Below are positions 21,597 through 39,801 of a stretch of 64,000 nt of DNA, one piece after another. Within the stretch, counting starts at the first letter, position 1; the number at the start of each line of letters is the position of its first letter. This stretch comes from a virus. The stretch covers positions 1 to 64,000 of IMG/VR virus record IMGVR_UViG_3300006076_000002; one strand, given 5' to 3'. Below the pieces are notes generated by a model. That model saw only the letters and a list, made by a program, of their open reading frames with translations. It searched no databases and had not been told where the DNA came from. A program made the position numbers and the translations under genes.

Positions 21597-21607
21597 GAGT
21601 TTAATTT

Positions 21608-21877
21608 ATGCTATATTATATTTATTGTATAAATAAAGATGGTTTTAAAACTTTTTACCTAGGAAATGACAATCCTTCTATTAAAGAATGGCGTAGTACT
21701 CCTGTACTTAAACAACCTACATTTATAAATGTATTTAAAGCTAAACATTTAATAGATGGGTTAAAGAAGATGGACATTGAAAATTCAGAAAATAACATAT
21801 ATACATACTCAATATTACCTGTTTTAACGTTTACAAGAAATAATAATGCAAAAATTTGTACTAAAACTAATAAATAA
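21608..21877 (+). CDS. small NIFEAK-family protein
   Basis: FINVFKAKHLI. Confidence 0.6.
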   Translation: MLYYIYCINKDGFKTFYLGNDNPSIKEWRSTPVLKQPTFINVFKAKHLIDGLKKMDIENSENNIYTYSILPVLTFTRNNNAKICTKTNK

Positions 21878-22097
21878 ACAGGGTAAGGAAGTAGACCATT
21901 ATCTAGTATACGCAACTATCATCAATAATCGTATAGTTACAGGTAATAGTATATCTTGGGATAACGATATTGCACAAGCTACTAGATTTACTGACCTATT
22001 CAAGTTAAAAAGAATAAAAGATAAACTTGTAGCAGAAGATAAAGACTATGATATAGATAGTCAATGGGATTATGAAGTAATAACTGTAAAAGATTAA
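21846..22097 (+). CDS. small protein, divergent NIFEAK-family member
   Basis: W..DIAQATRFTDLFKLK...YEVI. Confidence 0.5.
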   Translation: MQKFVLKLINKQGKEVDHYLVYATIINNRIVTGNSISWDNDIAQATRFTDLFKLKRIKDKLVAEDKDYDIDSQWDYEVITVKD

Positions 22098-22146
22098 GCT
22101 TTTATTAGTTATACTTCTACCCCACAAATTTAATTTAAGGATACAT

Positions 22147-24354
22147 ATGACAACATTAGAAATTACTAAAAACTATTTAGAACAACGAGGAGCATTTACT
22201 CCTACTATTCACGAAGTAGTTAACGTAACGTCACAAACAATTGGAGGAGACATACCTGAACACCTCAAGCTATCTATTACTCTATCCGAATTAATTACTC
22301 TTACTTCTCATTTACGTAAGAACATCCAACTTTCTGATGGCACTATAGTTCCTTGTAATGCTATTTCTATTGCATTGGCAGCTAGTGGTGTAAGCAAAGA
22401 TTCATCTATGAATAAAGTACGTAGAGCTCTTCAACCCGCCTATGAAGTCATAGCCCAACGACGCAAACAACTAGCTCGTCAAGCCGCAGAACAAGCAGCT
22501 CTCGACGATGGTCAATCTTCTGAGGAGTGGCTTAACTACTACGAAGCACCACCAGCTTTACAAGTAGGACTAGGAACCCCAGAGGGTTTGGTAAAAAATT
22601 TTGCAATGCTAGAAGAAAGCCCACTTGGAGCAGCATCTATTAACTCTTCTGAAGTAGGTTCTGAGATGCAAACTAATCAGTCTTTCCTAGACATAGTAAA
22701 GACTATTTCAATTGGTTACGACTTAGGAAAAGTACCAATCAAGGTAGTTAAAGCAGCAGAAAATCGTGTAGGTGCTATTGAACACTTACCAATAAACGCT
22801 CTAATGTTTGGCTCTGAGGATGCAATCCTATACGATAACTTTATCAAAGCTAAGTTTCGTTTAATGTTTAATACCCAGTTAGCACGTCGTTCATTGTTTA
22901 GCTTCTCAAAACAACGTCCAGTACCTCGTGTATACAAATCAGAGAAAGAACTTCTTAGATACCACGAATTACAACGTACAAATAGCAAAACAGCTAGATC
23001 CAATATTGAGAACTATTTAGTGGATATGGTAGAATTTACTACTACTACTCCATTGACTTTATCCAAAGAAGCTCAAGCAGCATTTGATATGTACCTTGAA
23101 TACAATGATAACTTATCCCATGATATTAGTCCTCAATTACCTATCACTAAACTATCTCGTAAACATAAGCAGTGGTTAGCTCTTAAGCTATCAGGTAATT
23201 ATGCAATTCTTGATGGTGAGCAGGAAATCAGCGAAGAGAATTATATCTTAGCCATCAACACGGTAGAAGAACTTGCTCCAGATTTAGAAACATTTGAAAA
23301 AGAACTTAATAAGGAATTATATGAACAATTTGTGGATTACTGTAGATTACATATTGGTAGCGACGATAAGCTTAGCCTTTCTATACATGAACTTAAGAAA
23401 CTAGGTTATCTGCCTGCAACTAATAATTACCAAGCTAAATTAGATGAACTATTAACACTTACTTCCTCTTATGATGCTGAAGGTATCTATACGCGTTGTG
23501 ATGATGGTGTATGTTATGAACCAATTATCAAAGACTCTGAATGTGGTTTATCACTACTATCATTTACTAAACATGAAGCAGAATCACCAGCCGAACTCAA
23601 ACAGCGTATGGCTAAATCTTGTAGTTCGGGTTACGAATTCTATGAAACCCCATTTGAGGCCTTAGCAGATGTACTATCACAATATGCAGCTTACTCTCCC
23701 TTCTTATTCAAGAATGGTAAACGCTCTAAGGATAATCTAGCTGGTAAAACTAAATGGATAGTACTTGATATTGATAATTCTAATATTACTTATGAAGAAT
23801 GTCATCTATTATTATCAGATTATAACCATCATATAGCAACTACTAGTGATGCATCTAATGAATTTAAATTCCGTGTATTACTTGAACTAGATAGCTTAGT
23901 AGATATACCAGCAGAGAATTGGAAGTATTTCATTGAATCTATAGCTAACGCTCTAGGATTGAACGCAGATTTACTCCCAAAAAGTCAAATATACTTTTCA
24001 TATGCTTCAGATAATATACTATCAGTTACAGATGCAGAACCTATTGAAGCTAAACAACATGTAATTAATGCATCTAATCATACTAAACCTGAGCAACCTG
24101 CCACTTTATCTGCTAAAGCTAAAACAGCAGCATTAAAAGACCCTAGAGAAACATTTGCATATGCTTATGAATGTACCGATAATGGTTCAGTTAATCTGTA
24201 TAAAGCAGCTAAGCATGCACACGATCTGGGAGCTAGTAAAGAAGAGATTATAAATCTAGTGTGGGATATTAACTCATATTGGACGGTAAGTATGGATCCT
24301 GAGAGAATACAACAAACAATCATCTCTCAAGTTTCACGTTGGCAATACAAGTAA
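22147..24354 (+). CDS. phage primase (N-terminal DUF3987-like NTPase region, C-terminal primase-polymerase-like domain)
   Basis: AASGVSKD; WIVLDIDN, HHIATTS, KFRVLL; size similar to N4-like primases. Confidence 0.7.
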   Translation: MTTLEITKNYLEQRGAFTPTIHEVVNVTSQTIGGDIPEHLKLSITLSELITLTSHLRKNIQLSDGTIVPCNAISIALAASGVSKDSSMNKVRRALQPAYEVIAQRRKQLARQAAEQAALDDGQSSEEWLNYYEAPPALQVGLGTPEGLVKNFAMLEESPLGAASINSSEVGSEMQTNQSFLDIVKTISIGYDLGKVPIKVVKAAENRVGAIEHLPINALMFGSEDAILYDNFIKAKFRLMFNTQLARRSLFSFSKQRPVPRVYKSEKELLRYHELQRTNSKTARSNIENYLVDMVEFTTTTPLTLSKEAQAAFDMYLEYNDNLSHDISPQLPITKLSRKHKQWLALKLSGNYAILDGEQEISEENYILAINTVEELAPDLETFEKELNKELYEQFVDYCRLHIGSDDKLSLSIHELKKLGYLPATNNYQAKLDELLTLTSSYDAEGIYTRCDDGVCYEPIIKDSECGLSLLSFTKHEAESPAELKQRMAKSCSSGYEFYETPFEALADVLSQYAAYSPFLFKNGKRSKDNLAGKTKWIVLDIDNSNITYEECHLLLSDYNHHIATTSDASNEFKFRVLLELDSLVDIPAENWKYFIESIANALGLNADLLPKSQIYFSYASDNILSVTDAEPIEAKQHVINASNHTKPEQPATLSAKAKTAALKDPRETFAYAYECTDNGSVNLYKAAKHAHDLGASKEEIINLVWDINSYWTVSMDPERIQQTIISQVSRWQYK

Positions 24355-24525
24355 GGGAGACTAAATGAAAATAGCTCTTATAATAATAATGACAATGGTA
24401 GCTTATATTTTTGCAGGATTAGCAGGACATTATATCGCACTAGGCGATTATAGTGCAGCTGCAATTGATACTGTAACAGTAATTATAGAGTTGATTTTAA
24501 TATCTAATACCTTAAAGGAGTACTA

Positions 24526-24744
24526 ATGACTAATGAAGAAGAACACACCTTAGCTATGAGTCTTGTGTATGCTTTAGGTGCTAAACGTAAAGTAATAGAA
24601 TTTAAAGATATGTTAACTGATGAAGACATAGTTGAAATAGTAAATGCATTAGTTACCTTCGAAAACTCACATAAAATAGCTAAAGGTTTCAAAGATTCTC
24701 AAGTAGCTTATGCTTTAATGCAAGAACTACAAGCTCAACAATAA
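24526..24744 (+). CDS. hypothetical protein
   Basis: AAGGAG RBS, TAATG coupling. Confidence 0.6.
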   Translation: MTNEEEHTLAMSLVYALGAKRKVIEFKDMLTDEDIVEIVNALVTFENSHKIAKGFKDSQVAYALMQELQAQQ

Positions 24745-25130
24745 CGCTTTAGGTGACGAAATGTAATATGTGTAGACTGCACATGAGTTATAAACAACCG
24801 TATCAGACTTACTGTTTTTCAAAACCATCAGTAATGTAACTGGGGCACCTAATTTTATAGTTATCATAGAATCTCCGAGCATTGACACTACGCTTCTAAT
24901 TAGTGTCTTTTATATATATATATATGTATAAAACTAATTAAAAAAGTAAAAGGAACCTAAAATGAGAATAAAAAATTATGATATATTTTTTGGTGCAATA
25001 GATGGGATTATATCTAAAGGTACAAATAAAGCTATTACTACTTATGTAGGTAAAGTAGAAGCTACAGAATATGTTGTTTATATCTTGTTTTTTATACGTA
25101 TTTTAAAACGTAAATAAGGAAGAATATTTA

Positions 25131-25574
25131 ATGAACTGGATATATAATGATAAAGAAATCACATCTATAGATCAACTACCAGCTAATGCATATGGTTTCA
25201 TATACATGCTAGTTTACGATACAAATAAGGCTTATATAGGCAAGAAAAACCTTTACTCATATCAAACCTTACCTGCACTGAAGAACGGCAAGCAGAGGCC
25301 TAATTCTGAACGTATAGGTAAGAACAGAAATGGTAAACGAGTGTATTTTGATAAAGTACGTAAAGAAAGTGGATGGAAATCTTATAAAGGTTCATCCAAG
25401 GAAATCCCCGATGAAGTTAAAATAGTAGAAAAGCACATTCTAGCTATAGCCTATGACCGTAGAGAACTTACATACTTAGAGACTAAACATTTATTCTGCT
25501 ACGAAACTATAGAATCATCCGATTTCTATAATAGGAATATACTGAATAAATTTTTTAAAGAAAAAGGATTATGA
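25131..25574 (+). CDS. GIY-YIG (Seg-like) endonuclease-family protein
   Basis: YGFIY...AYIGKK, W.SY.GSS, FYN.NI. Confidence 0.75.
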   Translation: MNWIYNDKEITSIDQLPANAYGFIYMLVYDTNKAYIGKKNLYSYQTLPALKNGKQRPNSERIGKNRNGKRVYFDKVRKESGWKSYKGSSKEIPDEVKIVEKHILAIAYDRRELTYLETKHLFCYETIESSDFYNRNILNKFFKEKGL

Positions 25575-25653
25575 AAAAATCAATACGAAATATGGGTTTA
25601 ATTTTACAGTTGAGTCTATTCAAAGCAATACAATTTATGAGAAGGATCGCTAA

Positions 25654-26331
25654 ATGAAAAACATGATGATGAACGCTGAAGCAGCAAAAGCTATTATTGA
25701 TGATCGCAAAATTCAAACGAGAAGAGCTGTCAAAGCATCAGATGCTGGAACAATAAAAGATGTAAAAAATGGATATGTGTATGTTGATGTAAATTATAAA
25801 GTGTTTGTGGACAACTACAAAATACCTATCAATAGTTTTGTTGAAAAAATTTCAAAATATCAAGTAGGAGATATTGTTTGGGTAAGAGAGCCTGTTGAAA
25901 TAGTAGAATTTATTGATACCGATGCTTACTTAGAGTTGTCTTTTAAATATATTGCAGACAGTACAATCGATTCAATCAACAGTGATACTACAGAAGAGCG
26001 CAATCTTATTGATTTTTACGAAGAAAAACTACATGGAAAAAATTGGGTAAAGGTAGGTAATAGAGTTACAAGCGGTTGTTTGAAGGAGATGGCTCGTATC
26101 TTTTTGAAGATTACTGATGTTAGGGTTGAGAGGTTGCAGGATATATCAACTAGCGAGATTGAAAAAGACGCAGGTGTTGTTAAAGATAAATACAAGGTTT
26201 GCCCTAGCTGGGCAGATAGTATGGTTATTGATTTTAGTATATTATGGGACAAAACCTCACCAAAAGGCTATAAATGGGAAGATAATCCTTATGTGTTTGT
26301 ATATGAGTTTGAAAGAACTGAAAATGGATAA
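25654..26331 (+). CDS. ASCH/PUA-like phage protein
   Basis: AIIDDRKIQTRR, GD.VWVRE, LKITDVRVERLQDIS, W..NPYVFVYEF. Confidence 0.75.
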   Translation: MKNMMMNAEAAKAIIDDRKIQTRRAVKASDAGTIKDVKNGYVYVDVNYKVFVDNYKIPINSFVEKISKYQVGDIVWVREPVEIVEFIDTDAYLELSFKYIADSTIDSINSDTTEERNLIDFYEEKLHGKNWVKVGNRVTSGCLKEMARIFLKITDVRVERLQDISTSEIEKDAGVVKDKYKVCPSWADSMVIDFSILWDKTSPKGYKWEDNPYVFVYEFERTENG

Positions 26332-26584
26332 TGAAGCAACTGGAGAATACTTAGAAAGGCTAGACAATAGCTCTCTTTGTCCCGTTTGTAAAGAAGAGTT
26401 AAATGATGATGACGGAGTATTTTTTGACAAAATGGCAGATATTAAAAAATGTCCATATTGCCACACGACAATTGAGTATGTTAAACAGTTAAAAGAAGAT
26501 ACGGGAAATCCCTATTGTAATTATGTATGGGATAAAACTTATATAAAATGGGAAAAGAAAGAAACGATTATAACAAATGCATAA
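26324..26584 (+). CDS. zinc-ribbon protein
   Basis: Real start probably ATG 26324 (MDNEAT...); CPVC...CPYC. Confidence 0.55.
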   Translation: MDNEATGEYLERLDNSSLCPVCKEELNDDDGVFFDKMADIKKCPYCHTTIEYVKQLKEDTGNPYCNYVWDKTYIKWEKKETIITNA

Positions 26585-26801
26585 GGAGTATAATATGAAA
26601 GATTGGGCAGTAGTAGTAATAGCGTCTGCAATACTACTTACTCTTATAATGGGGGCAGTTATTGAGAACGCTAATAAAACACAAATGGCAAAAAATGGAT
26701 TAGAGGAATGTTTAGCTAACCCTAATTCATGGAGTAGCCGAACTATATGGGTAAAATCATGTAAAGAGTATATGAACACAATGAGAAACAATAATGAATA
26801 G
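26577..26801 (+). CDS. small membrane-anchored protein
   Basis: TM helix, two Cys. Confidence 0.55.
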   Translation: MHKEYNMKDWAVVVIASAILLTLIMGAVIENANKTQMAKNGLEECLANPNSWSSRTIWVKSCKEYMNTMRNNNE

Positions 26802-26988
26802 CTTAATTACTAAAAATATAGTTAAAAAGAAATCTGATAATACAACTATTACAGCCAAAGTTACTGAAGAATTCAAACACAAATGGGATAAGTGGGTATT
26901 TGATAATAATATAAATAAAGCTAAAACACTACAAGCAGTACTGACAAACTTAATGGAGAACTATGATGAAATCAATCAAAATAGGTGA
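26794..26988 (+). CDS. possible ribbon-helix-helix protein
   Basis: TTITAKVTEEFK..W strand-helix-helix pattern. Confidence 0.4.
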   Translation: MNSLITKNIVKKKSDNTTITAKVTEEFKHKWDKWVFDNNINKAKTLQAVLTNLMENYDEINQNR

Positions 26989-27241
26989 TACAGTATACTA
27001 TAGAAATGACTTTAATGACATAACTAAAGGTAAGGTACTACAACTGTTAACAAATCATGACCATACAGGAAAACCTTACACAGTAGCCTTAGTTAAAACT
27101 ACTAGCGATAAAATTATTTGGCATCACGTTATTGAAATAAATTATTTAACAACTGATAATACAAAATACAATAAAGAACAAGAACGTATTAAAATTAAAG
27201 AACAAATAGAACAATTACAAGAAAGGTTAAGAACATTATGA
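26963..27241 (+). CDS. hypothetical protein
   Basis: IKIGDTVYY SH3-like start, coiled C-terminus. Confidence 0.55.
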   Translation: MMKSIKIGDTVYYRNDFNDITKGKVLQLLTNHDHTGKPYTVALVKTTSDKIIWHHVIEINYLTTDNTKYNKEQERIKIKEQIEQLQERLRTL

Positions 27242-27669
27242 ATACCGATTTAACTATCACACTAACAGGTAAAGCAGCACGAGATTATGTAAACCAAGAA
27301 GGTAGATATAATATCCTGGTCAATAAGTATGAGGAAGCATTACAGACAATTGAAAAGTTATCTAAGCATAAACCGACTGCTGAAGAACTTAATAATAAAT
27401 ATAACCAAACTATAGTATATGAAGAAACAGAAGAACCTGCACCTATAATCGAACCTAATCCTGTAGAGTTTCCTGCTACTAAACCTAAAACTAAGTCGGG
27501 TTCACACTGGACAGAGGATGAATTAAAGCCTATTAAACACGCTTTAAAATTAAACCATACTCTTGCATCTCTTAAAGTTAAGCTATCTAATCGCAGTGAA
27601 GCAGCTATTAGAACTAAGTTGATTGAGTACGGTGTAGGTGTAAAAAATAATAAATTATATAAACGATAA
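27238..27669 (+). CDS. protein with C-terminal Myb/SANT-like HTH
   Basis: WTEDE...L.NRSEAAIRTK. Confidence 0.55.
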   Translation: MNTDLTITLTGKAARDYVNQEGRYNILVNKYEEALQTIEKLSKHKPTAEELNNKYNQTIVYEETEEPAPIIEPNPVEFPATKPKTKSGSHWTEDELKPIKHALKLNHTLASLKVKLSNRSEAAIRTKLIEYGVGVKNNKLYKR

Positions 27670-27677
27670 GGATAACT

Positions 27678-27890
27678 ATGACTATTTTCAGAGTAGCTTA
27701 TAAACCTGTTATCAATGATAGGGTAATACAACATTTAATAGAAACATATGACCCTGCTATGATTGAATATGATGATAACGGAGTACAGTTTAGTATTGAC
27801 GATGTAATTGAATCTTATCAAGATTTAGGTATTGAAGACAGTATATTAAATGAATTACGTAAAGAAAAAATTGACTATGTGGAGTTTTAA
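27678..27890 (+). CDS. hypothetical protein
   Basis: ORF with RBS. Confidence 0.55.
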   Translation: MTIFRVAYKPVINDRVIQHLIETYDPAMIEYDDNGVQFSIDDVIESYQDLGIEDSILNELRKEKIDYVEF

Positions 27891-27892
27891 TT

Positions 27893-28501
27893 ATGCAACC
27901 TTGTAAATCTGATTATGATTATGAACAATTAGTTACTAACTATATTGAATATAACATCAATAGTAATATCGAATACAATAATGGTGAACCTTTACCAGAT
28001 AAGTTTACATCTACTGCTCAAAGAAGACTTAGTTTTGATGGGCCTTATCTAATTAGTTATAACACTAGAGTAGCTAAATTTGTACATACCAAAAGAGCTA
28101 CGTACTTATTAATAGATATAAATAGTTATTCTAATACAACTACTAAACAACTACGTACACTACAACAAATAGTACTTAATGGTATATATACAGTAACAAA
28201 AGGTGTAATAATTATAGAAACAACGGATATAGACAATTCTTTTAATGCTGTAAAAGATTACTATTTTGAACGTATTACAGATACCTATAAGTACTGTAAA
28301 AAAGCACGTGTAAGTAGACCTCTACAAGCTGCTCTAGAAGCGTATAAGTCCTTTATCCAATCAATTCTACCAGAATTGCATTATAAGACCAGAGAGGCTA
28401 CTCTACGTAAGCTACAAGAGCTACCTAATATACCAGATAAGTTAGATAAGTTTACTAGACCTATTTTGTTATCAGTACTTGAAAGTAAAGGGTTAATTTA
28501 A
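27893..28501 (+). CDS. phage hypothetical protein
   Basis: LISYNTRVA...YSNTTTKQ motif. Confidence 0.65.
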   Translation: MQPCKSDYDYEQLVTNYIEYNINSNIEYNNGEPLPDKFTSTAQRRLSFDGPYLISYNTRVAKFVHTKRATYLLIDINSYSNTTTKQLRTLQQIVLNGIYTVTKGVIIIETTDIDNSFNAVKDYYFERITDTYKYCKKARVSRPLQAALEAYKSFIQSILPELHYKTREATLRKLQELPNIPDKLDKFTRPILLSVLESKGLI

Positions 28502-28973
28502 CCCGGTGTGAAAACTAAGCTGGTCAACATACTACACTACAGAAAGCCTCACCACCTGGCCGAGATACTTCGTATCAATTCGGCTGGCGGTGCTTCGTTT
28601 TCTTTGTGTATTTCTTGCTTTACTCTCCTCTTATTTTTTCTTGAGTGCAGATAAGATACGGTGCGATTTATCGCAAGGAGTAGCTTATTTGAACGAAAGT
28701 AGACAAACCGAAGGTTTGGATATAGTTATAGCCTAGCGCAGCCTTTAGTTATTTCTTTTCTTACTTATGTCGTTTCTATTAATTATATATGTATATATGA
28801 TAACCTATAAAATTAGTGGAAACTACCTAAACTTAGTGTTTTCTAGTAATTAAACCTAGTTAAATATACTGAAATATACAGAAGAAATAGTTAAATTTAA
28901 GGAAGAATACGGTATAATTACTTATATTTAATAGCTCCAACTATTAAGTATAATAACCGTATAAAGGAAAGTC
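28502..28973. other. hairpin-rich then AT-rich non-coding region (origin-like) with sigma70 promoter
   Basis: Several hairpins (GATAC-TTC-GTATC, CAAACC-GAA-GGTTTG), AT tract, TTTAAG...GGTATAAT near 28896-28918. Confidence 0.45.
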
Positions 28974-29429
28974 ATGAGTAATTATACACAAAATTACCTT
29001 AAAGTAGTAACTAAAGGTTACAAACCAAATAACAGTTACCCAATAGATGGTATTAAACCAATAAAGTATGTTAGAGGAGAATACATGTTATCACAAGAAT
29101 TTAAACGAAATATAATAAAAACTTTAGGAGCAGATGCTTATATTTTATACGAGTATTTTTATGATACTACTAGAGCCAATGGTAGAATGATACCCACTGA
29201 TGATGAAGGCATAGGTAATACATTTGGATGGTCAAAATCTAAAGTGACTAGGTTAAAGAGTCAGCTAAAAAAAGCTAACTATTTGCTTATTATAAAAGAG
29301 TCAACTACCAAAGGCACAATATTGTATAAAGTCTTATTAAATCCTAGTATTATAACACAATATAAAAATACTGGAGAACTACCTGATGAAATAGAAGTAA
29401 TAGGCAAGGAAGAACGTGGAACCAACTAA
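28974..29429 (+). CDS. winged-helix DNA-binding / replication-initiator-like protein (paralog 2)
   Basis: AYILYEY, IGNTFGWSKSKVTRLKSQLKKANYL. Confidence 0.7.
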   Translation: MSNYTQNYLKVVTKGYKPNNSYPIDGIKPIKYVRGEYMLSQEFKRNIIKTLGADAYILYEYFYDTTRANGRMIPTDDEGIGNTFGWSKSKVTRLKSQLKKANYLLIIKESTTKGTILYKVLLNPSIITQYKNTGELPDEIEVIGKEERGTN

Positions 29430-29445
29430 CAACGAAGGATAACTG

Positions 29446-29892
29446 ATGAATACGTCAAGCAGAATAAACAAAGTAATATACGAGCTAGTGTCATACTATA
29501 TAGATAATCAACTACCTTTCAATATTATCGCACTAGATAAGGAAGATAGTTTTGATTTACCAAAAGAAGTGTACTACGATAATAGCAACGCAGTATCTAT
29601 AGATATACTAGAATGGAATCTAGAGACTGCTGAGTATGACGATAAACATTTATATGTAACATATGTATATAACAATGAGGAAATACCTCTAACTATACCG
29701 CTAGTAAACATAAACACTATTATGGATATGACACATAGAAGTATAGTATTTGTAAACATATTTGAAACAAATATAGATGATGTAATAGTTACTGATACAA
29801 ATCTAAAAGTAGAAAAATATGTAAAAACACATGAAAAAGAGATAGCTCATTCAATGAGTTGTTTATCTCTATGCAACAGTAAGGACGTATAA
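29446..29892 (+). CDS. hypothetical protein, possibly SspB-like fold
   Basis: Recalled resemblance to a conserved epsilon-proteobacterial protein (LP.E...ETA..DD..L....IPL..I..I...FVN); unverified. Confidence 0.35.
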   Translation: MNTSSRINKVIYELVSYYIDNQLPFNIIALDKEDSFDLPKEVYYDNSNAVSIDILEWNLETAEYDDKHLYVTYVYNNEEIPLTIPLVNINTIMDMTHRSIVFVNIFETNIDDVIVTDTNLKVEKYVKTHEKEIAHSMSCLSLCNSKDV

Positions 29893-30224
29893 TGGCTAAT
29901 ATATTAGGACAAGACGAGATAGATGCATTGTTAGATGTATGCGATGAAACTACAGACTTAGAGAATTTACAATATCTAAGAGCCTTCTTTAGAGAAGCTC
30001 CTGTTGAAGGTACTGTTAATGACACCTATATACGAGTATCTAACAATTTAGCAAAAGATATCATAAAGCAACTTGGTAGTGCTATCATAACATTGGAACG
30101 TTTAACAGAAGATGGTAGTAAGGCTAAAAATAGTTATAAAGAATGCGGTACTTGTACAGTGTGCGGAACATACAACGACCCAGACAGGCAGGTATGTAAC
30201 TGCGCCAATAAGCAATTAATTTAG
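29892..30224 (+). CDS. protein with FliM N-terminal CheY-binding-like peptide and C-terminal Cys cluster
   Basis: MANILGQDEIDALLDVCDE matches the FliM ILSQxEIDALL motif; CxxCxxC...CxC tail. Confidence 0.7.
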   Translation: MANILGQDEIDALLDVCDETTDLENLQYLRAFFREAPVEGTVNDTYIRVSNNLAKDIIKQLGSAIITLERLTEDGSKAKNSYKECGTCTVCGTYNDPDRQVCNCANKQLI

Positions 30225-30245
30225 ATATATTGATAAGGGCATATA

Positions 30246-30470
30246 ATGAAAGATATACTAAATGAAAAAGAAGTAAATGAGATACTAAATATTTTAAGTA
30301 GCTATAGCGAGTTAGAGAACTTACAGCACATAAAAAGCTATTTAAAAGAAGTACCTATATCTGGTACAGTATTTAATTCTTATGTAGAAATACCTAGTAA
30401 TACTGTAATAGATATTATTAAACAACTAGACAGAGTTATTACTATTTTAAAACAAACAGAAAATAACTAA
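30246..30470 (+). CDS. tandem paralog of 29892..30224 with degenerate FliM-like peptide
   Basis: MKDILNEKEVNEIL...LENLQ...E.P..GTV...DIIKQL. Confidence 0.7.
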   Translation: MKDILNEKEVNEILNILSSYSELENLQHIKSYLKEVPISGTVFNSYVEIPSNTVIDIIKQLDRVITILKQTENN

Positions 30471-30661
30471 TGTTTATATTAGAAGCAACAGTAAGTTATA
30501 ACACGTGTAGTACGTTATACTATAGTTATTTTGGAGAATATACAGAAATAACATTAGATAAAAAAGAGGCTTTAAAAATGGATAACATATTTGATGTTAA
30601 ACAACTAATAAATAAACACAATCTTAAAAACTATAAAATAGTTGAAATAAAGAATAGCTGA
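30470..30661 (+). CDS. small NIFEAK-family protein
   Basis: DNIFDVKQLI...YKIVEIK. Confidence 0.65.
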   Translation: MFILEATVSYNTCSTLYYSYFGEYTEITLDKKEALKMDNIFDVKQLINKHNLKNYKIVEIKNS

Positions 30662-31029
30662 TGATTGGTAAAGAATTGTTAAGTGAAATACTGGGCTATA
30701 CTCCTAAAACAATTAAATTTGATAAAAATAGGAATGAAGTTATATGGTTAAAAGAAATCACTTATAAAAGCTACGGTATTGAACAATCAGGTAATATTAA
30801 AATGTATATAAATATCTATGAGTTAGCACATAAGTGTAAAAAGTGGCTAATTAATAGTGATTATTTTATTACTATAAAATATGATCCTCGTATAGGGAGA
30901 ACTAAAATTGAATTAATTGTATCTAAAGATAGTACTACTATATCCAGTGAAGAACACTTTTATACAAACACAGAACAAGATGCTATATTTCAAGCATGTG
31001 AATGGATACTTAAACAAAAGGATAACTAA
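30661..31029 (+). CDS. phage hypothetical protein
   Basis: KELLSEIL, INIYELAHKCK.W, AIFQACEWIL. Confidence 0.65.
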   Translation: MIGKELLSEILGYTPKTIKFDKNRNEVIWLKEITYKSYGIEQSGNIKMYINIYELAHKCKKWLINSDYFITIKYDPRIGRTKIELIVSKDSTTISSEEHFYTNTEQDAIFQACEWILKQKDN

Positions 31030-31214
31030 TGAAGTATAGACTAAGAATTAGTTATAACCATAAATCTACTGCTATAGGCCCTGGTATCCCTCCAAACACT
31101 GAAGTACTGCCAAAAGTATACGATAACATATTTGAAGCTAAGAGAGCTAAAGAACTTTTTATAAAACATAATGATGGGTGTAGTTTTACCATAATTGAAA
31201 TAAAGAGTAGATAA
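31029..31214 (+). CDS. small NIFEAK-family protein
   Basis: DNIFEAKRA...IIEIK. Confidence 0.65.
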   Translation: MKYRLRISYNHKSTAIGPGIPPNTEVLPKVYDNIFEAKRAKELFIKHNDGCSFTIIEIKSR

Positions 31215-31420
31215 TGTCTCAGTTGTATATACTACATACTAATTACCATACAGGTATAGATTTTCAAGTATATTACTATGCATACAGTAAAGATACAGCA
31301 AGTTATGGTGTGTGGGCTACTGATATGGAGTATGCAACTAAACTAAATATATTTGAAGCTAAACAGGTAGTACATGAGTATAAACTTAAAGACTACAATC
31401 TAATTGAAATAAAGGAGTAA
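31214..31420 (+). CDS. small NIFEAK-family protein
   Basis: LNIFEAKQVV...YNLIEIK. Confidence 0.65.
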   Translation: MSQLYILHTNYHTGIDFQVYYYAYSKDTASYGVWATDMEYATKLNIFEAKQVVHEYKLKDYNLIEIKE

Positions 31421-31422
31421 CT

Positions 31423-31935
31423 ATGAGTATTTTACTAAAAGAAAAAATAGCAAAACATAGAAATGGTAGGTATATAGGACTATATAAATGTGATTGTGGT
31501 AACGAATATACAGCAGTACAGACAAAATTCAATTCAGGGCATAATAAAGACTGTGGGTGTAGAATTAATGCAAAAAATAAAAAAGCCTCCCCTGAAGTAT
31601 TAAGGTTAAAACAAATACGCAAAGGTATGCTGCAGAGATGTTACAATGAAAAAGCTGAACACTACGACTGTTATGGTGGACGTGGAATAACTGTATGTAA
31701 AGAATGGGTAAACGATAAGGATACTTTTATAAAATGGGCGCTATCTAATGGGTATAAAATAGACTTAAATGAAAAAGGTATCAATAAACTATCAATAGAC
31801 CGTATAGACAATAATAAAGGATATTACTCTAGTAACTGTAGATGGGTAGATAAAAGTACCCAAATGAAGAACAGAAGACCATATAGAGTAGGTAAACCTA
31901 AATTAACTATAGAATCATTTGACTGGGTAATATAA
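31423..31935 (+). CDS. free-standing HNH homing endonuclease
   Basis: CDCG...CGC, YGGRGITVCKEW, SIDRIDNNKGY...NCRW. Confidence 0.88.
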   Translation: MSILLKEKIAKHRNGRYIGLYKCDCGNEYTAVQTKFNSGHNKDCGCRINAKNKKASPEVLRLKQIRKGMLQRCYNEKAEHYDCYGGRGITVCKEWVNDKDTFIKWALSNGYKIDLNEKGINKLSIDRIDNNKGYYSSNCRWVDKSTQMKNRRPYRVGKPKLTIESFDWVI

Positions 31936-31947
31936 AGGAAATGTGAT

Positions 31948-34422
31948 ATGTCAATAATAAAAGTTAGCTACGAAATAGCTTCTACTAGTTATACTATAGG
32001 TAAGATACTACGTAAGCTAGAATCTGTACCATTATTAGCAGTGGATACTGAAGTAAGAAGTATCTACAGCAATAAAGAAATTAAAGAAGCCAAAGAATTA
32101 CTTAAAGATACTACTAATATGTCTGTAGAAATAGTTAATGAACTAAAACTTATAGCAGGGAGTAGTGGACTTAGTTATCCTAAAATCACTAAAGTAACTC
32201 ACTTTATTTTATCTTACGATAAAGAACATAGTTATATCCTATTACCTAGTACTCCCCAAGAAGAACTACGTATATGGAATTGGTTAGCTAAGTTTCAAGG
32301 TAAGGTATTAGTATGGAATAGTTTATTTGATATGAAAATCATGTATGAACGTATACAACAATTACCTATAGATTTAGAAGACCCTATGCTTATGCTTAGA
32401 ACCTTAATTAATGATGTAGATAGTTGGAAGTGTAGAACAGGTTTAAAAGAGTTTGTAGGCTCTTATTATGACCCTAAATGGGGTATGATGGAAGACTACA
32501 CTAATGAAAACTATAAAGATGTTAGTTTCTTACAGTATTGTGCTAATGATACTAGTGCATTATTATTGGCCTATGAATTAATCTGTGAAGAATCAAACTA
32601 TGATGGTACTAAATCTGATAAACGTCCTTGGGAGATATTAGGTACTCTGCCTGAGCCTAAAGATTTTGACCCTTCAGAAGAAGAACCCTTATATTTTTAT
32701 AAGCATTTTATACGACCTCTTATACCTGATATGATAAAACTAATGTGTAATGGTTTAACTATGAATCAAGAAGCTATACAAGACTTAGATAAAGTAATAG
32801 TTAACGTACTAGACTCAGTAAAAACTACCTTAGCTAATAACACTGTTATACAAGAATTTCAAAAACTCCAGTATAAGAAAAACTATAAAGCACTTGAAGC
32901 AGAACAACGTTCTAAGTTTCGTACACTTGACTACTATCTTAAACCTTATAAGCAAGGTGATATGACTCATCGTACCTACTTAGTTAATTACTTACTTGAC
33001 CAAGCTAGTCTATCTAAAGATAAACGCAGTAAATGGACTGTAAACGACTTAAAGAAGTACAACCAGATAAATCCATTACCTATGTTTAAAGACATCATAG
33101 AGAAGACCGTAGACCCTACCAACGAGGTAGTATTAGATGTTATGAAATGTTTAGCACAAGAAAAACTTGACATATATAACAAATCTAAGCTAATTAAACT
33201 AGAAACTATCACTAAAGAAGAACTAGTTCCTCCTTTTAATGCCGGTAGTTCTAAACAGAAGACAGAGTTATTTAATTGGCTAGGTATTAAACCTTTAAAA
33301 TTCAGTAAAGATACAGGTGAGCCAAGCTGGGGAAGAGAGCAGGTTGAGGAGCTATTAAAAACCGCTGAAGATGAAACACTAAGAGAAGTGTTACAAGCTT
33401 TTATAGATTATAGCTATAGCGCTATTATTAAAAACAACTTCTTAGAATCATTTTCACGTTATACTATTGACGGTACTCTTCACGGAGGGGTGCGTTTATT
33501 CGGAACTAAAACATTCCGTCCCACAGGACAAAACCCTAACTTCCTTCAACTCCCTAGTTCTGGTTCTATATATGCTAAACCTTTAAAGAAATGTATTGTA
33601 GCTAAACCTGGATATCTTGTATGGACTATAGACTATGATCAACTAGAGGATAGAGTATTAGCTAACTTAACAAAGGATGAAGGTAAATGTAATATATTTT
33701 TAAAAAACCTAGATAGCCATTGTTACAATGCCTTAGGTTATTTTCCTGATAAAATCGCAGAACATATGCCATTAACAGGAGATCTAATTGCAGATACTTT
33801 AGAATTTAAAAGTAGGATAGAAAATGGAAATAAAGCTTTAAAGGATATCAGACAGCAAGGTAAAAGAGTTACGTTTGGAATTTCTTATGGAGCATTTCCC
33901 CCTAAAATAGCAGATTCTATAAAATGTTCAATAGAAGAAGCTACAGAAATATTCAACAACTACCACGGTAAACTGTACCCAGGAATTACTAAACTACGTG
34001 AAGATATTATTATACCTCAAACAAGTAAGAATGGGTATGTACATATGGGATTAGGTGCTAGGTTATATACTAGTGATATCAATAAAGATACAAGAACTAT
34101 ATGGAATTCTGTATCTCAATTTTGGTCAATACTAACTCTTATAGCTATGAATGAATTTCATTATAGATTACAAGAAGTAAATCATGACATCACTATTAAT
34201 GCAACCGTATATGATGCCTTATACGGTCAAATTGAGAATACCCCAGAAGCTATTGAATGGTTAAATAATACTTTACCTGAAATAATGAGAAAAGATTTTT
34301 TATCCGATACCTTAGTACACAATAATGCAGCTGTAGAAATCGGCACTAGTTGGGCTAATTTACATGAATTACCTACCAACGCTTCTCTGGAGCAAATAGA
34401 ACAAACACTAAAGGATTTATAA
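31948..34422 (+). CDS. family A DNA polymerase
   Basis: Exo DTE / N.LFD / Y..ND; DYDQLEDR (A), RQQGKRVTFGISYG (B), VYDA (C). Confidence 0.93.
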   Translation: MSIIKVSYEIASTSYTIGKILRKLESVPLLAVDTEVRSIYSNKEIKEAKELLKDTTNMSVEIVNELKLIAGSSGLSYPKITKVTHFILSYDKEHSYILLPSTPQEELRIWNWLAKFQGKVLVWNSLFDMKIMYERIQQLPIDLEDPMLMLRTLINDVDSWKCRTGLKEFVGSYYDPKWGMMEDYTNENYKDVSFLQYCANDTSALLLAYELICEESNYDGTKSDKRPWEILGTLPEPKDFDPSEEEPLYFYKHFIRPLIPDMIKLMCNGLTMNQEAIQDLDKVIVNVLDSVKTTLANNTVIQEFQKLQYKKNYKALEAEQRSKFRTLDYYLKPYKQGDMTHRTYLVNYLLDQASLSKDKRSKWTVNDLKKYNQINPLPMFKDIIEKTVDPTNEVVLDVMKCLAQEKLDIYNKSKLIKLETITKEELVPPFNAGSSKQKTELFNWLGIKPLKFSKDTGEPSWGREQVEELLKTAEDETLREVLQAFIDYSYSAIIKNNFLESFSRYTIDGTLHGGVRLFGTKTFRPTGQNPNFLQLPSSGSIYAKPLKKCIVAKPGYLVWTIDYDQLEDRVLANLTKDEGKCNIFLKNLDSHCYNALGYFPDKIAEHMPLTGDLIADTLEFKSRIENGNKALKDIRQQGKRVTFGISYGAFPPKIADSIKCSIEEATEIFNNYHGKLYPGITKLREDIIIPQTSKNGYVHMGLGARLYTSDINKDTRTIWNSVSQFWSILTLIAMNEFHYRLQEVNHDITINATVYDALYGQIENTPEAIEWLNNTLPEIMRKDFLSDTLVHNNAAVEIGTSWANLHELPTNASLEQIEQTLKDL

Positions 34423-34600
34423 TGAAGCTAGAAGATATGACAACTGAAGAAAGAGTATGTACTGTACTAAACAAACTAAATGAAATAGTGAATAAACCTG
34501 CAAGCACTGAAATTCCGCCATGGTTAGTAGAGTATAGAAAAGCAGAACATGCAGCAATAGAAAAATGGTGTAATTCAGTAATGGCTAAAAAGGATTTATA

Positions 34601-34810
34601 ATGAAAACTGACACTCCATTAACTGATACTTGGGATCACGTAAAAGATATATCTTCTATAGAAGCACAACTTAGTAGAACCTTAAACAATATGAAACAAT
34701 GCTATGTATGTGGAAAGAAAGCTACACATAGTGTATATCACAAAGAACCTAACCAATTTATGGGAAGTTTTATAGGTCTATGTAACAACCATACTAAAAA
34801 GGATTTATAA
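34601..34810 (+). CDS. small zinc-finger-like protein
   Basis: CYVC...LC..H. Confidence 0.55.
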   Translation: MKTDTPLTDTWDHVKDISSIEAQLSRTLNNMKQCYVCGKKATHSVYHKEPNQFMGSFIGLCNNHTKKDL

Positions 34811-35103
34811 TGAGTTTAAAACAAGAACTAGTAGGTTGGGTATTCTTTGATTCAGAAGAGCTAGAAGATAGAACAAACTTAATTAAAACAATAAGTATAC
34901 ATCTTGCAGGATTTAAACGAGACATAGCTAGTTATTCTGATGAATGCAGTGTAATCAAAGGGAAGTTAATTGTACCTGAACACGTAGTAGAGGATTTAAA
35001 ATATATGTTAGATGCTTATGTATATAATTTATTAATGATATTCAAAGAAGTGGATAAAGGTATGTATGATAAACTCATAGAACAAACACTAAAAGAAAAG
35101 TAA
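34810..35103 (+). CDS. hypothetical protein
   Basis: Coupled ORF. Confidence 0.6.
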   Translation: MSLKQELVGWVFFDSEELEDRTNLIKTISIHLAGFKRDIASYSDECSVIKGKLIVPEHVVEDLKYMLDAYVYNLLMIFKEVDKGMYDKLIEQTLKEK

Positions 35104-35113
35104 AGGATTTATC

Positions 35114-35446
35114 ATCGGATTCAGATCAGACGTATACATAAAATGTAAAAAAGAAAAAGTATTTGAATTTAAACATTTCCTACAAACATATAGAGAAAAG
35201 TTTAATGAAGATTTACAACAACAAGAAGAATTCTACACAGACGATGATTACTTATATTTAATTCTACGTGACTGGAAATTTTATTCTAGTTATCCAGAAG
35301 TAGATTTTATTACAGACTTTGTAGAACTAGAAGACTTAGACGAGTATATCGGTATGATAGCTATTAATGAAGATTCTACTAAAGATGAATGGGGAAGTCC
35401 TTGGGATGTAGATTTAAATACCTATATGGAAATAGAAGGAATGTAA
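35114..35446 (+). CDS. phage protein of MG[YF]RSDV type, with ATC at the start position
   Basis: Not in ORF track. 110-codon frame (M)GFRSDVYI...DWKFYSSYPEV...; AAAGGA RBS just upstream; stop abuts the next ATG. Confidence 0.65.
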   Translation: MGFRSDVYIKCKKEKVFEFKHFLQTYREKFNEDLQQQEEFYTDDDYLYLILRDWKFYSSYPEVDFITDFVELEDLDEYIGMIAINEDSTKDEWGSPWDVDLNTYMEIEGM

Positions 35447-35665
35447 ATGGAAACTTTTAATGATTCAAATGAAGAAAAACGAGCACAAGAATGTGTAAAC
35501 AGAGGTAACTTTTGGGTATGTAAGGAATGTGCAGACAAATATAGTAAAAACCTATCTTATGAAGGCATATTAACTATGCATAACGATGAGTGTTATATCT
35601 GTCAACAGCATAGAATGGTAGCTCCTAGCTATAAGCTATTTGGCTTTTATAAAGGAGTAATATAA
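35447..35665 (+). CDS. small zinc-finger protein
   Basis: CKEC...CYIC. Confidence 0.55.
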   Translation: METFNDSNEEKRAQECVNRGNFWVCKECADKYSKNLSYEGILTMHNDECYICQQHRMVAPSYKLFGFYKGVI

Positions 35666-35856
35666 TGACAATACAAATTAAGAACATACAGTATTTCGAA
35701 TGGAAAATACCAGATAACTTAGTTAAAGGCATAGCACCTGATGATTATGATAAATTACAGCAACTAATCGATGAATATTTCATTCCAGATGACTGTACAG
35801 AAGTAGAGCAAATCAGTGATGATTACTACGAACTCGAACAAGTAGAAGCACAATGA
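35665..35856 (+). CDS. hypothetical acidic protein
   Basis: AAGGAG RBS, coupling. Confidence 0.55.
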   Translation: MTIQIKNIQYFEWKIPDNLVKGIAPDDYDKLQQLIDEYFIPDDCTEVEQISDDYYELEQVEAQ

Positions 35857-36035
35857 CACAAGCACAGCTATATCAACTGTATTTAGATGCTACTGAACTA
35901 ATGGTACAAAATGACATGACAGAAGCTTATGATTTAATTGATTATTTAGCTCAAAAATACAATTTAATATTTGATGTATATTTAGCTAATAAATCATATC
36001 TAACAGAAGATAAATATTATCCACCAAAGGAATAA
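35853..36035 (+). CDS. hypothetical protein
   Basis: ATGA coupling. Confidence 0.5.
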   Translation: MTQAQLYQLYLDATELMVQNDMTEAYDLIDYLAQKYNLIFDVYLANKSYLTEDKYYPPKE

Positions 36036-36201
36036 CAATGATAATAGAAATAACAGTAAAACAGGGAAAAGATGTAGAAACTTATACACGTACAAATGTG
36101 AAGTTCTATAGTTTCGATAAACAATATCTAGCAATTACCTATAACGATAATTCTCATGGATACTATAGATTATCTACAGTACTAGTGATAGAGGAGGTAG
36201 C

Positions 36202-37119
36202 ATGAAAGTAGGAACCCCAACCTCTCTTGATTATTATAATGGGCAAAATGAAGTACCTGAAGGTGCATTCCGTATTGGAGCATCTTCATTTAGTACCTTT
36301 GTGTCACGACCATGGCAGTGGTTCAAGGAACAAGTACTAGGTATTGGAGGATTTGAAGGCTCCACGAGCAGTATCTTAGGTTCTGTGGTGCATTACGTCT
36401 GTGAACAAAAAGCACAAGGCAAAGAACCGGATATTAATGAAATCGATCAGTACATCCTCAATAATCGGGGTAACCCTGATGTTGATGCATACATAGTTGA
36501 AAAAGAATGGAAATCTATGGCTATATGTGTTGTCAATGAATTTGTATTACCTAACATTAAACGCTATAGTTCAGTAGAGGAGTTCGTAGTACACGACCTT
36601 GGAGATGGTATCTACATTGGTGGTTCGATAGATGCTGTACTAGATGAATACAAAACCTATAAAGTAAATGGTGCCTATATAAACGGCAAAAAAGAGTATG
36701 ATAAGCTATCTTTAGATAAACAAAACGATTGTACTATAACTTCTACCTCAGGCACAATAGTGGATTACAAAACAACGTCTGGACGTGTACCTACTAATAT
36801 CCCAGCTAACTACAAGCAACAATTACTAGTTTATGCCTGGGTACTTAAACAACTAGGCAGAACTATGGATCGTATACAACTGGTATACATCACCAGAGAG
36901 AAGGATACTCGTGCTATCAGTGAGAAAACTGGCAAATCTATAGGGCGTTTACAGCTACCAGAAACTACTGTGTTAACTGAGCAAATACAAGAATCAGATT
37001 TACAGTGGATAGAAGAGGAAATTATGTTATGTAAAGATAAACTATTACTTACAGAACAACAACCAGATATAGCTAATCTTATTTGGCACTACCCTGAATC
37101 TTATTTAACTAATAATTAA
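36202..37119 (+). CDS. PD-(D/E)XK (Cas4/RecB-like) exonuclease
   Basis: LGSVVH, GSID, IVDYKT, QLLVYA. Confidence 0.85.
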   Translation: MKVGTPTSLDYYNGQNEVPEGAFRIGASSFSTFVSRPWQWFKEQVLGIGGFEGSTSSILGSVVHYVCEQKAQGKEPDINEIDQYILNNRGNPDVDAYIVEKEWKSMAICVVNEFVLPNIKRYSSVEEFVVHDLGDGIYIGGSIDAVLDEYKTYKVNGAYINGKKEYDKLSLDKQNDCTITSTSGTIVDYKTTSGRVPTNIPANYKQQLLVYAWVLKQLGRTMDRIQLVYITREKDTRAISEKTGKSIGRLQLPETTVLTEQIQESDLQWIEEEIMLCKDKLLLTEQQPDIANLIWHYPESYLTNN

Positions 37120-37226
37120 GCTAACCTATTGTACAATTTTTCATAAGTCCTTTAAATAGGCAGTCTTATACGGATAACTATCTACGGTTATCTAAAGCCT
37201 TATTATTTACAATAAGGAATAATCAT

Positions 37227-37955
37227 ATGGAAAAGAAATATAATAGGTCTCATATAGGAGAAACTCACATAACTAAAAGTTCTTTAGGTGGTTACACACT
37301 AAAAGTTATAGATGCAAGTAGTAAACCTGGATACTGTAAAATACAGATAAAAAACTGGATAAAAGAAGTAGTGTATACTCATGTAAAAAATGGTGTAGTA
37401 AAATACCCGTACCACCCAACAGTTTTTAATATAGGCTATTTAGGAGAGGGTATTTACACAAAAACAGCTAAATGTTATAGAGTATGGCAGGGTATGCTAG
37501 AAAGGTGCTACAGTAATAGCTGTCAAGAAAATCATCCTAGTTATAAAGGGGTAACTGTATGCGAGAAGTGGTATAATTATCAAAACTTTGCTGAATGGTT
37601 CTATAAAAAATCAAATTACCAAGAAGGGTGGCATTTAGATAAAGATCTACTGTCAGGGGATAATAAACTGTATAGTCCAGAAACTTGCATCTTTATACCA
37701 CAAGCGTTAAATAGTTTTATGACTAACAAACAAGTTACAAATACAAGCGGATATACAGGTGTAAGTAAAATACGGAATTCTACAAAATTCAAAGCACAAA
37801 TAAAAAAGAATAACAAAGTCTATCATTTAGGAAATTTTACAAGTAAGATAATAGCACGTATAGTATATTTAAAAGCTAGAAGTGATTATGCTTTAGAGTG
37901 GCAACAAAATATGAAAAATAAGCTACCTTTAAAGGTGATACAAAATATAAAATAA
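37227..37955 (+). CDS. HNH homing endonuclease with C-terminal AP2 domain
   Basis: W.GMLERCY, WHLDKDLL...YSPETCIFIP..LN, TSGYTGV...FKAQI...HLGNF. Confidence 0.88.
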   Translation: MEKKYNRSHIGETHITKSSLGGYTLKVIDASSKPGYCKIQIKNWIKEVVYTHVKNGVVKYPYHPTVFNIGYLGEGIYTKTAKCYRVWQGMLERCYSNSCQENHPSYKGVTVCEKWYNYQNFAEWFYKKSNYQEGWHLDKDLLSGDNKLYSPETCIFIPQALNSFMTNKQVTNTSGYTGVSKIRNSTKFKAQIKKNNKVYHLGNFTSKIIARIVYLKARSDYALEWQQNMKNKLPLKVIQNIK

Positions 37956-38131
37956 TAGGCAAATTGGTGCCTCCTACTTGTACGGTTTTAGTTGAGCAAA
38001 TCACTTCAGATGACCTTAAGTGGATTGAAGATATGATTATGCTTGCAAAAGACAAGCTATTAGCTACTGAGCAGTATCCTGAACTACAATCTCTGATTTG
38101 ACATGCGCCTCAGAGCTACTTCGAAGAGTAA
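37955..38131 (+). pseudogene. orphaned second 3' end of the exonuclease gene
   Basis: IGKLVPPTCTVLVEQITSDDLKWIEDMIMLAKDKLLATEQYPELQSLI*HAPQSY aligns to the C-terminus of 36202..37119. Confidence 0.85.
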
Positions 38132-38208
38132 TTTTATTACCACGACTAGTCGATGCCCTAGTCTATATGAAGGTGGTGGTAACCACAAGTCCGAAGGCAT
38201 CACTATAT

Positions 38209-38282
38209 GTACCATTAAGCTCAAAGGTAGAGCTCATTTCCTTTTAAGATTTGGGTTACTGGTTCGACTCCAGTATGGTACT
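38209..38282 (+). tRNA. tRNA-Lys(UUU), weak anticodon stem, no encoded CCA
   Basis: GTACCAT/ATGGTAC acceptor, AGCT/AGCT D stem, CTTTTAA loop, ACTGG-TTCGACT-CCAGT T arm. Confidence 0.75.
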
Positions 38283-38528
38283 ACTGATTCTAAGTTGATT
38301 ACTTGGCACCTACTACGAGGTGAATTCGTAGAATCTCTGGTTAAGCTACCCATGACAAAAATGAAAAGGCTAGAGTAGACTAATCATCTACTCGTACACT
38401 TTATATGTGTAGGCAGCTAAGTTTTTACCTCCTACAATAAATTTTATTACTTGCGGATTTGAACCTCGTATATAACAAATCAATTAATAGATTTTTACTT
38501 AGCTGTCTACTAGTATAAAGTAAAGGCG

Positions 38529-38771
38529 GTGCCAATGAGATGGCTAATACAAATATGGCATAACATATGGAACTATCTTATAACTAAGGATAGAGATCGT
38601 GTATTAGCTCAAATGATAAAAGAAACTAGAGAACAGACAATATCTGAACCCTCTAAACATAAGTGTCCTAAAACAGGATTAACTATAGTTGATAAGCTAC
38701 CAGCTAGACAACTTAAAATAAAAAAGAAAAGGAAAGCTAATGGGAGAACTAGAACAGAAAATGTACAGTGA
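38529..38771 (+). CDS. hypothetical protein
   Basis: ORF. Confidence 0.45.
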   Translation: MPMRWLIQIWHNIWNYLITKDRDRVLAQMIKETREQTISEPSKHKCPKTGLTIVDKLPARQLKIKKKRKANGRTRTENVQ

Positions 38772-39637: not shown

Positions 39638-39801
39638 GGACCATTTAAGCACATTAGTTGTACAATTCGTACCCAACATTGGATATTACCTATAAAGGAT
39701 TACTTAAGTTATGTTCTGTTATACTTTTAATCTACGCAGGGTTAATATACTGCACCATCTAAACTTTACGGAATTGCCAAATTCTATAAAAAGGAGTTTA
39801 G

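Follow-up and report, generated by a model that had tools for sequence, protein, structure and literature searches.

Why does a virus carry a small gene whose product starts like FliM, the flagellar switch protein, and then continues as something else? The question is raised by a locus in a stretch of 64,000 nucleotides (hereafter the window), which spans the initial 64 kb of a virus genome that is complete (92,858 bp, with direct terminal repeats) and has a G+C content of about 33%. In flagellated bacteria the N-terminal peptide of FliM (FliM-N) is the high-affinity, phosphorylation-dependent site for CheY (PMC7957414). The initial annotation of the locus proposed that such a peptide is borne by a phage protein of 110 amino acids (aa) and, in an eroded form, by its neighbor. 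Several questions follow. Is the likeness to FliM real? Is it maintained among relatives? Does it occur elsewhere in phages? What could the protein do with it in an infected cell? The features of the locus are as follows, with positions in the window.

29881..29885, plus strand: Shine-Dalgarno-like AAGGA, 6 nt before the ATG, read from the sequence and putatively functional
29892..30224, plus strand: gene of the 110-aa protein, with a FliM-N-like peptide, a helix-hairpin-helix body and a Cys-rich tail
29892..29945, plus strand: residues 1-18 (MANILGQDEIDALLDVCD), the FliM-N ('EIDAL') look-alike peptide
29952..30107, plus strand: residues 21-72, the family-conserved body, with the end of helix 1, a beta-hairpin at the invariant G40 and helix 2
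30144..30200, plus strand: residues 85-103, a Cys cluster (C-x2-C-x2-C ... C-x-C)
30246..30470, plus strand: tandem paralog of 74 aa, with the same body, a degraded peptide and no Cys tail

The 110-aa protein begins MANILGQDEIDALLDVCDE. The ATG of its gene overlaps the stop codon of the ORF at 29446-29892 (TAATG), which suggests translational coupling of the two. In an AlphaFold2 model based on an alignment of 12 sequences, a helix (residues 7-35) is followed by a beta-hairpin around G40 (38-47) and a second helix (51-81), with pLDDT values of 81-90 in the body, 64-71 in residues 1-20 and below 50 in the Cys tail. The peptide is modelled, at the moderate confidence just given, as continuous with helix 1, and therefore its exposure as a free peptide is an assumption. 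Five Cys residues lie within residues 85-103, in addition to C17, and this cluster is confined to the 110-aa protein, being absent from all homologs. It is possibly a small zinc-binding tail: in this poorly modelled region Zn_ribbon_RanBP scores 14 bits, below the cut-off of 27. Pfam gives no match in the protein, and no DNA-binding or enzymatic domain was found in it with Pfam, PHROG, Foldseek or the ESM Atlas. Foldseek of the model against the PDB returned nothing at E <= 0.001, and the ESM Atlas gave no usable feature match, its structural rows being uninformative.

How specific is the likeness of the peptide to FliM-N? The pattern M-A-[DENK]-I-L-x-Q-x-E-I-x-x-L-L was scanned in one genome per prokaryote species, which gave at least 120 loci. 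All of the matches listed (at least 120) stand at the start of ORFs of 325-370 aa or of ORFs cut by the end of the locus, and a FliM body is present in 118 of the 118 evaluable loci among them, so that the pattern is diagnostic of FliM in cellular genomes; one of the matches, in a Sulfurimonas genome, shows Pfam FliM at residues 41-231 together with FliMN_C. A hidden Markov model (HMM) of FliM-N with 20 positions was built from 64 distinct FliM N-termini among the matches listed. Against the 358 ORFs of the phage it matches only the 110-aa ORF, at 33 bits (E 6e-10; the next ORF reaches 3.9 bits), with the caveat that the pattern used to choose its training set was itself derived from the window peptide. 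A loose form of the motif has a chance probability of 2.8e-9 per residue position.

The motif begins at residue 4, and the consensus [IL]-L-S-Q-x-E-I-D-x-L-L is kept except for the change of S to G at position 6, where FliM has a near-invariant Ser among the matches listed. The likeness goes on beyond this core, as LL-D-V-C-D-E resembles [DE]-V-V-[DE]-[DE], which is found in Campylobacterota FliM only, among the matches listed. The best identity of the N-terminus to a real FliM is 15/22 among the matches listed, and all FliM proteins with this value belong to Campylobacterota. The initial annotation was thus right to see a look-alike that extends past the core motif, and the start that it gave for Campylobacter and Helicobacter FliM, MADILSQEEIDALLEVVDE, agrees with real FliM N-termini. 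When window 20001-40000 was compared by BLASTN with 401 Campylobacteria genomes, window 29887-29938 was matched in dozens of them, and the two matches that were checked are the first bases of fliM. Nucleotide identity between fliM 5′ ends and the phage gene is at most 48/66, so the likeness is kept at the protein level, with no sign of recent capture. As far as sequence comparison can establish it, the likeness to FliM is beyond chance, and residues 1-18 or so are a molecular mimic of FliM-N.

By its domain content the 110-aa protein itself is not a FliM. The FliM middle domain (PF02154) has no match in it or in the complete phage genome, where control genomes do match, and the C-terminal FliN-like domain (PF01052, SpoA) is absent from it; Sulfurimonas FliM shows both domains. 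The description of the peptide as fused to an unrelated body and a Cys cluster therefore stands, with no FliM domain found and five Cys in residues 85-103. Moreover, neither a receiver domain nor a FliM middle or FliN domain is encoded anywhere in the complete genome of the phage, so that any receiver partner of the protein must be a host protein.

Could the ORF be an orphan that resembles FliM-N by chance, or not a real gene at all? Very many windows were screened, so that lone chance matches are expected somewhere, and relatives of the protein are rare, metagenomic and all on short contigs. A word-indexed search of 5.8e9 proteins returned the entry of the 110-aa protein only, the word-indexed protein searches as a whole returned only the window's own proteins, and no match was obtained in 50,697 phage records by tblastn or megablast. 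Candidate relatives that were discarded comprise 23-aa tblastn matches, which were only chance matches to integrases, and a single IMG/VR 'relative' (L001), in which a chance 8-mer lies in the acidic tail of a 370-aa protein. Homologs were found only by profile search: a profile of the two paralogs against 1.84 billion (1.84e9) representative proteins yielded ten small homologs of 55-86 aa. Eight of the ten have the N-terminus MADIL-x-Q-..-I-..-LL-x-V-C-[DE], and the ninth (P0009) has a mate in its 90% cluster, P0013, which carries the peptide. For P0004-P0008, homology to the body of the 110-aa protein holds with the N-terminus left out (E 3e-13 to 9e-6).

These homologs establish that the peptide is conserved. 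In the secure set of seven sequences, which includes P0013, pairwise identity is 66% in residues 1-18 vs 38% in the body; across all 14 peptide-bearing sequences it is 69% vs 24%. Constraint is thus stronger on the peptide than on the remainder of the protein. None of the 14 sequences departs from M1, L5, Q7, I10, L13 and L14, and the homologs conserve I-L-x-Q-x-x-I-x-x-L-L. The initial annotation had staked its proposal on conservation of the peptide in related phages; on this point the proposal survives. Other positions are free: in the secure homologs the Ser position of the FliM L-S-Q is occupied by G, K, P or Q, and in the family the Asp of E-I-D is D, N or E and the following Ala varies. 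The phage peptide is therefore a relaxed copy of FliM-N, not an exact one. These conservation data effectively refute a chance origin, which we consider highly improbable; the tandem paralog, the ribosome-binding site with translational coupling, the confident model of the body (pLDDT 81-90), the 33 bits obtained with the FliM-N HMM and the recurrence of the peptide in other phages, described below, speak against it as well.

Most members of the family are about 70 aa long and contain nothing beyond the small body, and P0003-P0013 all lie on contigs of 0.6-5.4 kb. Bodies that are nearly identical may bear the peptide or lack it: the start of P0013 is MADILGQEEIN.. and that of its cluster mate P0009 is MVKNYNKN..., and P0003, with a body 78% identical to that of the 110-aa protein, has its start just after the peptide. 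P0009/P0013 and P0003 may represent paralog pairs like that of the window, or they may be artefacts of gene calling. Four further proteins (L033, L039, L236 and L237) are probable distant members of the family, although their scores with the body alone are weak (E 1e-4 to 7e-4 with the 12-sequence set); the fragments that carry them come from much larger phages and are without a related polymerase.

The ORF that follows the 110-aa gene was also annotated correctly as a paralog with an eroded peptide. It begins MKDILNEKEVNEIL, is 36% identical to the 110-aa protein over 70 residues (E 5e-20), differs in the peptide by Q7E, I10V, D11N, A12E and L13I, and terminates ahead of the Cys tail. It has no score with the FliM-N HMM. 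An AAGGG lies 6 nt upstream of its start, so that both genes have a purine-rich ribosome-binding site.

Is the peptide a peculiarity of this family? Scans of IMG/VR and JGI metagenomes with IUPAC patterns for small ORFs headed by the peptide revealed further small ORFs that begin M-A-x-I-L-S-Q-x-E-I-[DNE]-x-L-L; such scans select for the peptide by construction, and part of the evidence for its recurrence rests on them. The peptide stands at the start of at least five further types of small phage protein, which are apparently unrelated and whose bodies show no similarity to the window's family nor, for the most part, to one another:

Campylobacter phage protein: 121-128 aa
L040, L233 and L234: 102-113 aa
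Types with one member each: 114, 168, 152 and 83 aa

The Campylobacter phage protein is a 'hypothetical protein' in 29 records, from the CP220/CP21/CPt10 and the CP81/NCTC12673/PC14/F3xx groups. It corresponds to phrog_8774, in which the peptide is retained on bodies that are about 36-42% identical, and its truncated copies correspond to phrog_31201. The weak N-terminal matches of the 110-aa protein in PHROG are to these families; with phrog_8774 the match covers residues 1-23 only (15.8 bits), and BLAST of its body alone against phrog_8774 gave no match, so that the two do not belong to one full-length family. The earlier remark that no phage example had been described holds for the literature searched, in which we found no paper on a phage FliM-N mimic (full texts, from a part of all journals); unnoticed, however, the peptide is present in cultured Campylobacter phages, on this conserved protein annotated as hypothetical.

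Some further observations concern these proteins. CPt10 has a full CP220-type copy and also a truncated CP81-type copy of 45 aa (L031:1016-1150), and another CP81-type record has a truncated copy of 33 aa (L026:621-719). Three of the other types have a similar short motif at the C-terminus (..E-Q-P-E-I-F-I/L, ..E-H-P-E-Y-K-I, ..K-P-H-L-G-L), its bearers being the following:

L040:1766-2104
L233:3390-3695
L034:1936-2277
L021:5728-6231

This motif may be a second docking motif that would make its bearers two-ended adaptors. A Cys located 2-5 residues past the L-L of the peptide (residue 17 in the 110-aa protein, window 29940-29942) recurs, also in other body types: LLSVCED, LLDICED, LLECGS and LLNGLGC (the N-termini concerned include those of L233/L234, L039, L011 and L007). 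A disulfide bond with CheY is unlikely, as the Sulfurimonas protein lacks Cys. A 501-aa phage protein (L019:1331-2833) starts M-Q-L-N-Q-I-E-I-D-A-L-L-K, without the I-L-S part; this partial match to EIDALL is probably due to chance.

The loosened positions of the peptide bring up another explanation, namely that the helix is functional but not for CheY: it could serve a phage partner, a different host protein or the stability of the protein, and its resemblance to FliM-N would then be convergence on a common helix pattern. Indeed, the family does not keep the Ser and Asp that are invariant in FliM, and C17 occurs in 13 of the 14 members where FliM has Val. Against this stand the exclusive association of the pattern with FliM in cellular genomes (all 118 evaluable loci among the matches listed) and the flanking residues, which follow the FliM variant of Campylobacterota. 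Campylobacter is a flagellated bacterium, and the peptide recurs on unrelated phage proteins that include those of its phages. Some of these phages depend on motile flagella: F341, one of those with the phrog_8774-type protein, requires them for infection, and NCTC12673 has a gene for a flagellar-glycan-binding protein (PMC9266447). We therefore regard a function apart from CheY as quite unlikely.

If host CheY is the target, which host and which phage are concerned? The phage is, by its gene content, an N4-like podophage. It has a pair of ORFs of the size of the virion RNA polymerase (2,713 aa and 1,406 aa, both on the minus strand), and its DNA polymerase, of family A, shares about 40% identity with the polymerases of Alteromonas N4-like phages. 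The genes of the 110-aa protein and its paralog stand just upstream of the DNA polymerase, within a run of small ORFs that is bounded by a DnaD-like ORF on one side vs an HNH endonuclease and the DNA polymerase on the other. Two contigs have a DNA polymerase 78-86% identical to that of the phage; because both begin at the polymerase, the upstream region is absent from both of these relatives. In one of them (L229:851-4512) the polymerase, 86% identical, spans 3,662 nt for a match of 824 aa, and therefore has an insertion of about 1.2 kb that the window lacks, possibly an intein, an intron or a homing endonuclease. Sigma-70-like promoters between 27.5 and 32 kb were at chance level (28 found vs 27 expected). 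Other genes of the window that deserve mention are the following:

2103-2546, minus strand: stand-alone GGDEF-domain protein, 147 aa (Pfam 38.6 bits, cut-off 23.8)
25131-25574: SegE-like GIY-YIG gene of homing-endonuclease type (Pfam 68 bits), in the replication region
31423-31935: HNH endonuclease of homing-endonuclease type (phrog_374, E 7.5e-40), directly upstream of the DNA polymerase
38209-38282: tRNA-Lys, anticodon TTT, the sole tRNA gene in the window

The GGDEF protein has an intact R-I-G-G-D-E-F motif, and its closest clusters in the Atlas are short viral GGDEF proteins. With this protein and the FliM-N mimic the phage may touch two motility inputs, there being no link between the two genes.

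The flank of the peptide, the low G+C content and a weak gene link are compatible with a host of the Sulfurimonas type among Campylobacterota. The gene link concerns an ASCH-like gene (window 25654-26331), which has a 42% identical homolog at L238:297-878 with patches of about 80% nucleotide identity; it was the best other match of the 20-kb piece, which was compared with Campylobacteria genomes only. The homolog lies beside dUTPase-like, excisionase-like and integrase genes, at the end of a contig. The genome is one of Campylobacteria, its CheY shares 91% identity with Sulfurimonas CheY, and the homolog serves as a weak clue to the host. In this candidate host clade, a Sulfurimonas genome encodes both an ortholog of CheY1 (E 5e-62 to 3GWG) and FliM. 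A predicted complex of Sulfurimonas CheY with residues 1-75 of the family scored 0.00, a value that counts neither way on binding.

Taken together, the best reading of these sequences is that the protein is a decoy or adaptor for host phosphorylated CheY (CheY-P), and it probably interferes with the control of host swimming. We favor, at a probability of about 0.57, the following mechanism: the peptide would occupy the FliM-N-binding face of host CheY-P and so uncouple the motors from chemotaxis, with the body adding stability and perhaps avidity. An outline of the proposed process is as follows. The 110-aa protein would have an accessory role in its N4-like podophage. When a flagellated host (probably one of Campylobacterota) is infected, the exposed peptide would bind to the face of CheY-P that is normally taken by FliM-N (alpha4-beta5-alpha5) and compete with the motor for CheY-P, and the motors would therefore lose chemotactic control of their reversals. 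The helix-hairpin-helix body would be a scaffold, possibly an oligomerization module that adds avidity, and the Cys-rich tail would be a lineage-specific addition. The peptide-less paralog would be a duplicate in decay or, alternatively, a partner by which the peptide-bearing form is diluted or regulated. Binding to CheY-P, an effect on swimming and a benefit to the phage are what we infer from the likeness, its conservation and its recurrence. Affinity sets a limit on the mechanism. The values quoted in PMC7957414 for FliM-N are a Kd of about 27 uM for CheY-P and 680 uM for CheY; on that quoted figure the affinity for CheY-P is only moderate, so that a pure sponge would need a high copy number or avidity.

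An alternative in which CheY-P is not sequestered is that of an adaptor or sensor. Here the peptide would bind host CheY-P or another receiver (CheV, CheA-Y) either to recruit it to the body and Cys tail or to tie a phage function to the chemotactic or phosphorylation state of the host. In a variant, CheY might be potentiated at the motor, by analogy with E. coli, in which FliM-N fused to CheY raises clockwise output; FliM-N thus potentiates CheY rather than merely holding it (PMC7957414). The occurrence of the same peptide ahead of very different bodies agrees with an adaptor, as does the Cys-rich, possibly zinc-binding tail that the window protein alone has added; the ends of three other body types (..P-E-I/Y-x-I/L or ..P-H-L-G-L) hint at a second docking motif. 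Most family members, however, are about 70 aa with the small body only, and no DNA-binding or enzymatic domain was found in the 110-aa protein with the tools named above, so that we consider an adaptor unlikely.

What would follow if the decoy reading is true? By copying the peptide on which CheY-P docks, a phage protein would give the virus a direct hold on chemotaxis signalling in bacteria. Eukaryotic viruses characteristically mimic short linear motifs; to our knowledge, such mimicry has hardly been documented for phages. A broader proposal is that the FliM-N peptide has been copied repeatedly by phages that infect flagellated bacteria, on at least six unrelated small proteins, as a general and unpublished strategy of motif mimicry against a two-component signalling protein. 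The window protein would then be a tunable, CheY-P-dependent adaptor that couples the chemotactic state of the host to a phage function, or would lock the direction of the motor to exclude flagellotropic competitors. As a whole this proposal seems to us rather unlikely. The matter is readily testable, since cultured Campylobacter phages have an analogous gene and the CheY-FliM pair of their hosts is well studied. What the window contributes is a separate, conserved family of proteins, the context of a complete N4-like genome and a natural control in the peptide-less paralog. In addition, the positions that are invariant in FliM and free in phages (the Ser of LSQ and the Asp of EID) could separate the needs of CheY-P binding from those of motor switching.

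How does the phage protein compare with known systems? With FliM it shares a peptide at the extreme N-terminus with the same I-L-x-Q-x-E-I-D-A-L-L core, followed by an acidic D-V-x-D-E of the Campylobacterota type; it differs in having neither a FliM middle domain nor a FliN-like domain, in having Gly for Ser at position 6 and in having Cys for Val at position 17. The complex of FliM-N with CheY has been solved in E. coli, 1F4V being among the CheY entries matched. Other docking peptides for CheY-P in the cell are the N-terminus of FliY (Bacillus, spirochaetes) and the C-terminal peptide of CheZ. These too are short helical peptides, attached to proteins of other functions, that bind activated CheY on the same face, but FliY and CheZ are cellular components of chemotaxis with a phosphatase or ring domain, and the phage protein has no such domain. 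Among viral proteins, the nearest parallel in design is the phrog_8774/phrog_31201 protein of the Campylobacter myophages CP220, CP21, CPt10, CP81, NCTC12673, PC14 and the F3xx series, likewise a small phage protein, which starts M-A-x-I-L-S-Q-E-E-I-D-A-L-L and in which the peptide is invariant and the body diverges; its body, however, is unrelated to that of the 110-aa protein, and its carriers are large myophages whereas the present phage is an N4-like podophage. Tip and Aqs1 of Pseudomonas phages inhibit PilB, the ATPase of the type IV pilus. They resemble the proposed decoy as small early phage proteins aimed at a motility machine of the host, but they act on the assembly of the pilus, whereas the decoy would act on a signalling protein by means of a copied docking peptide.
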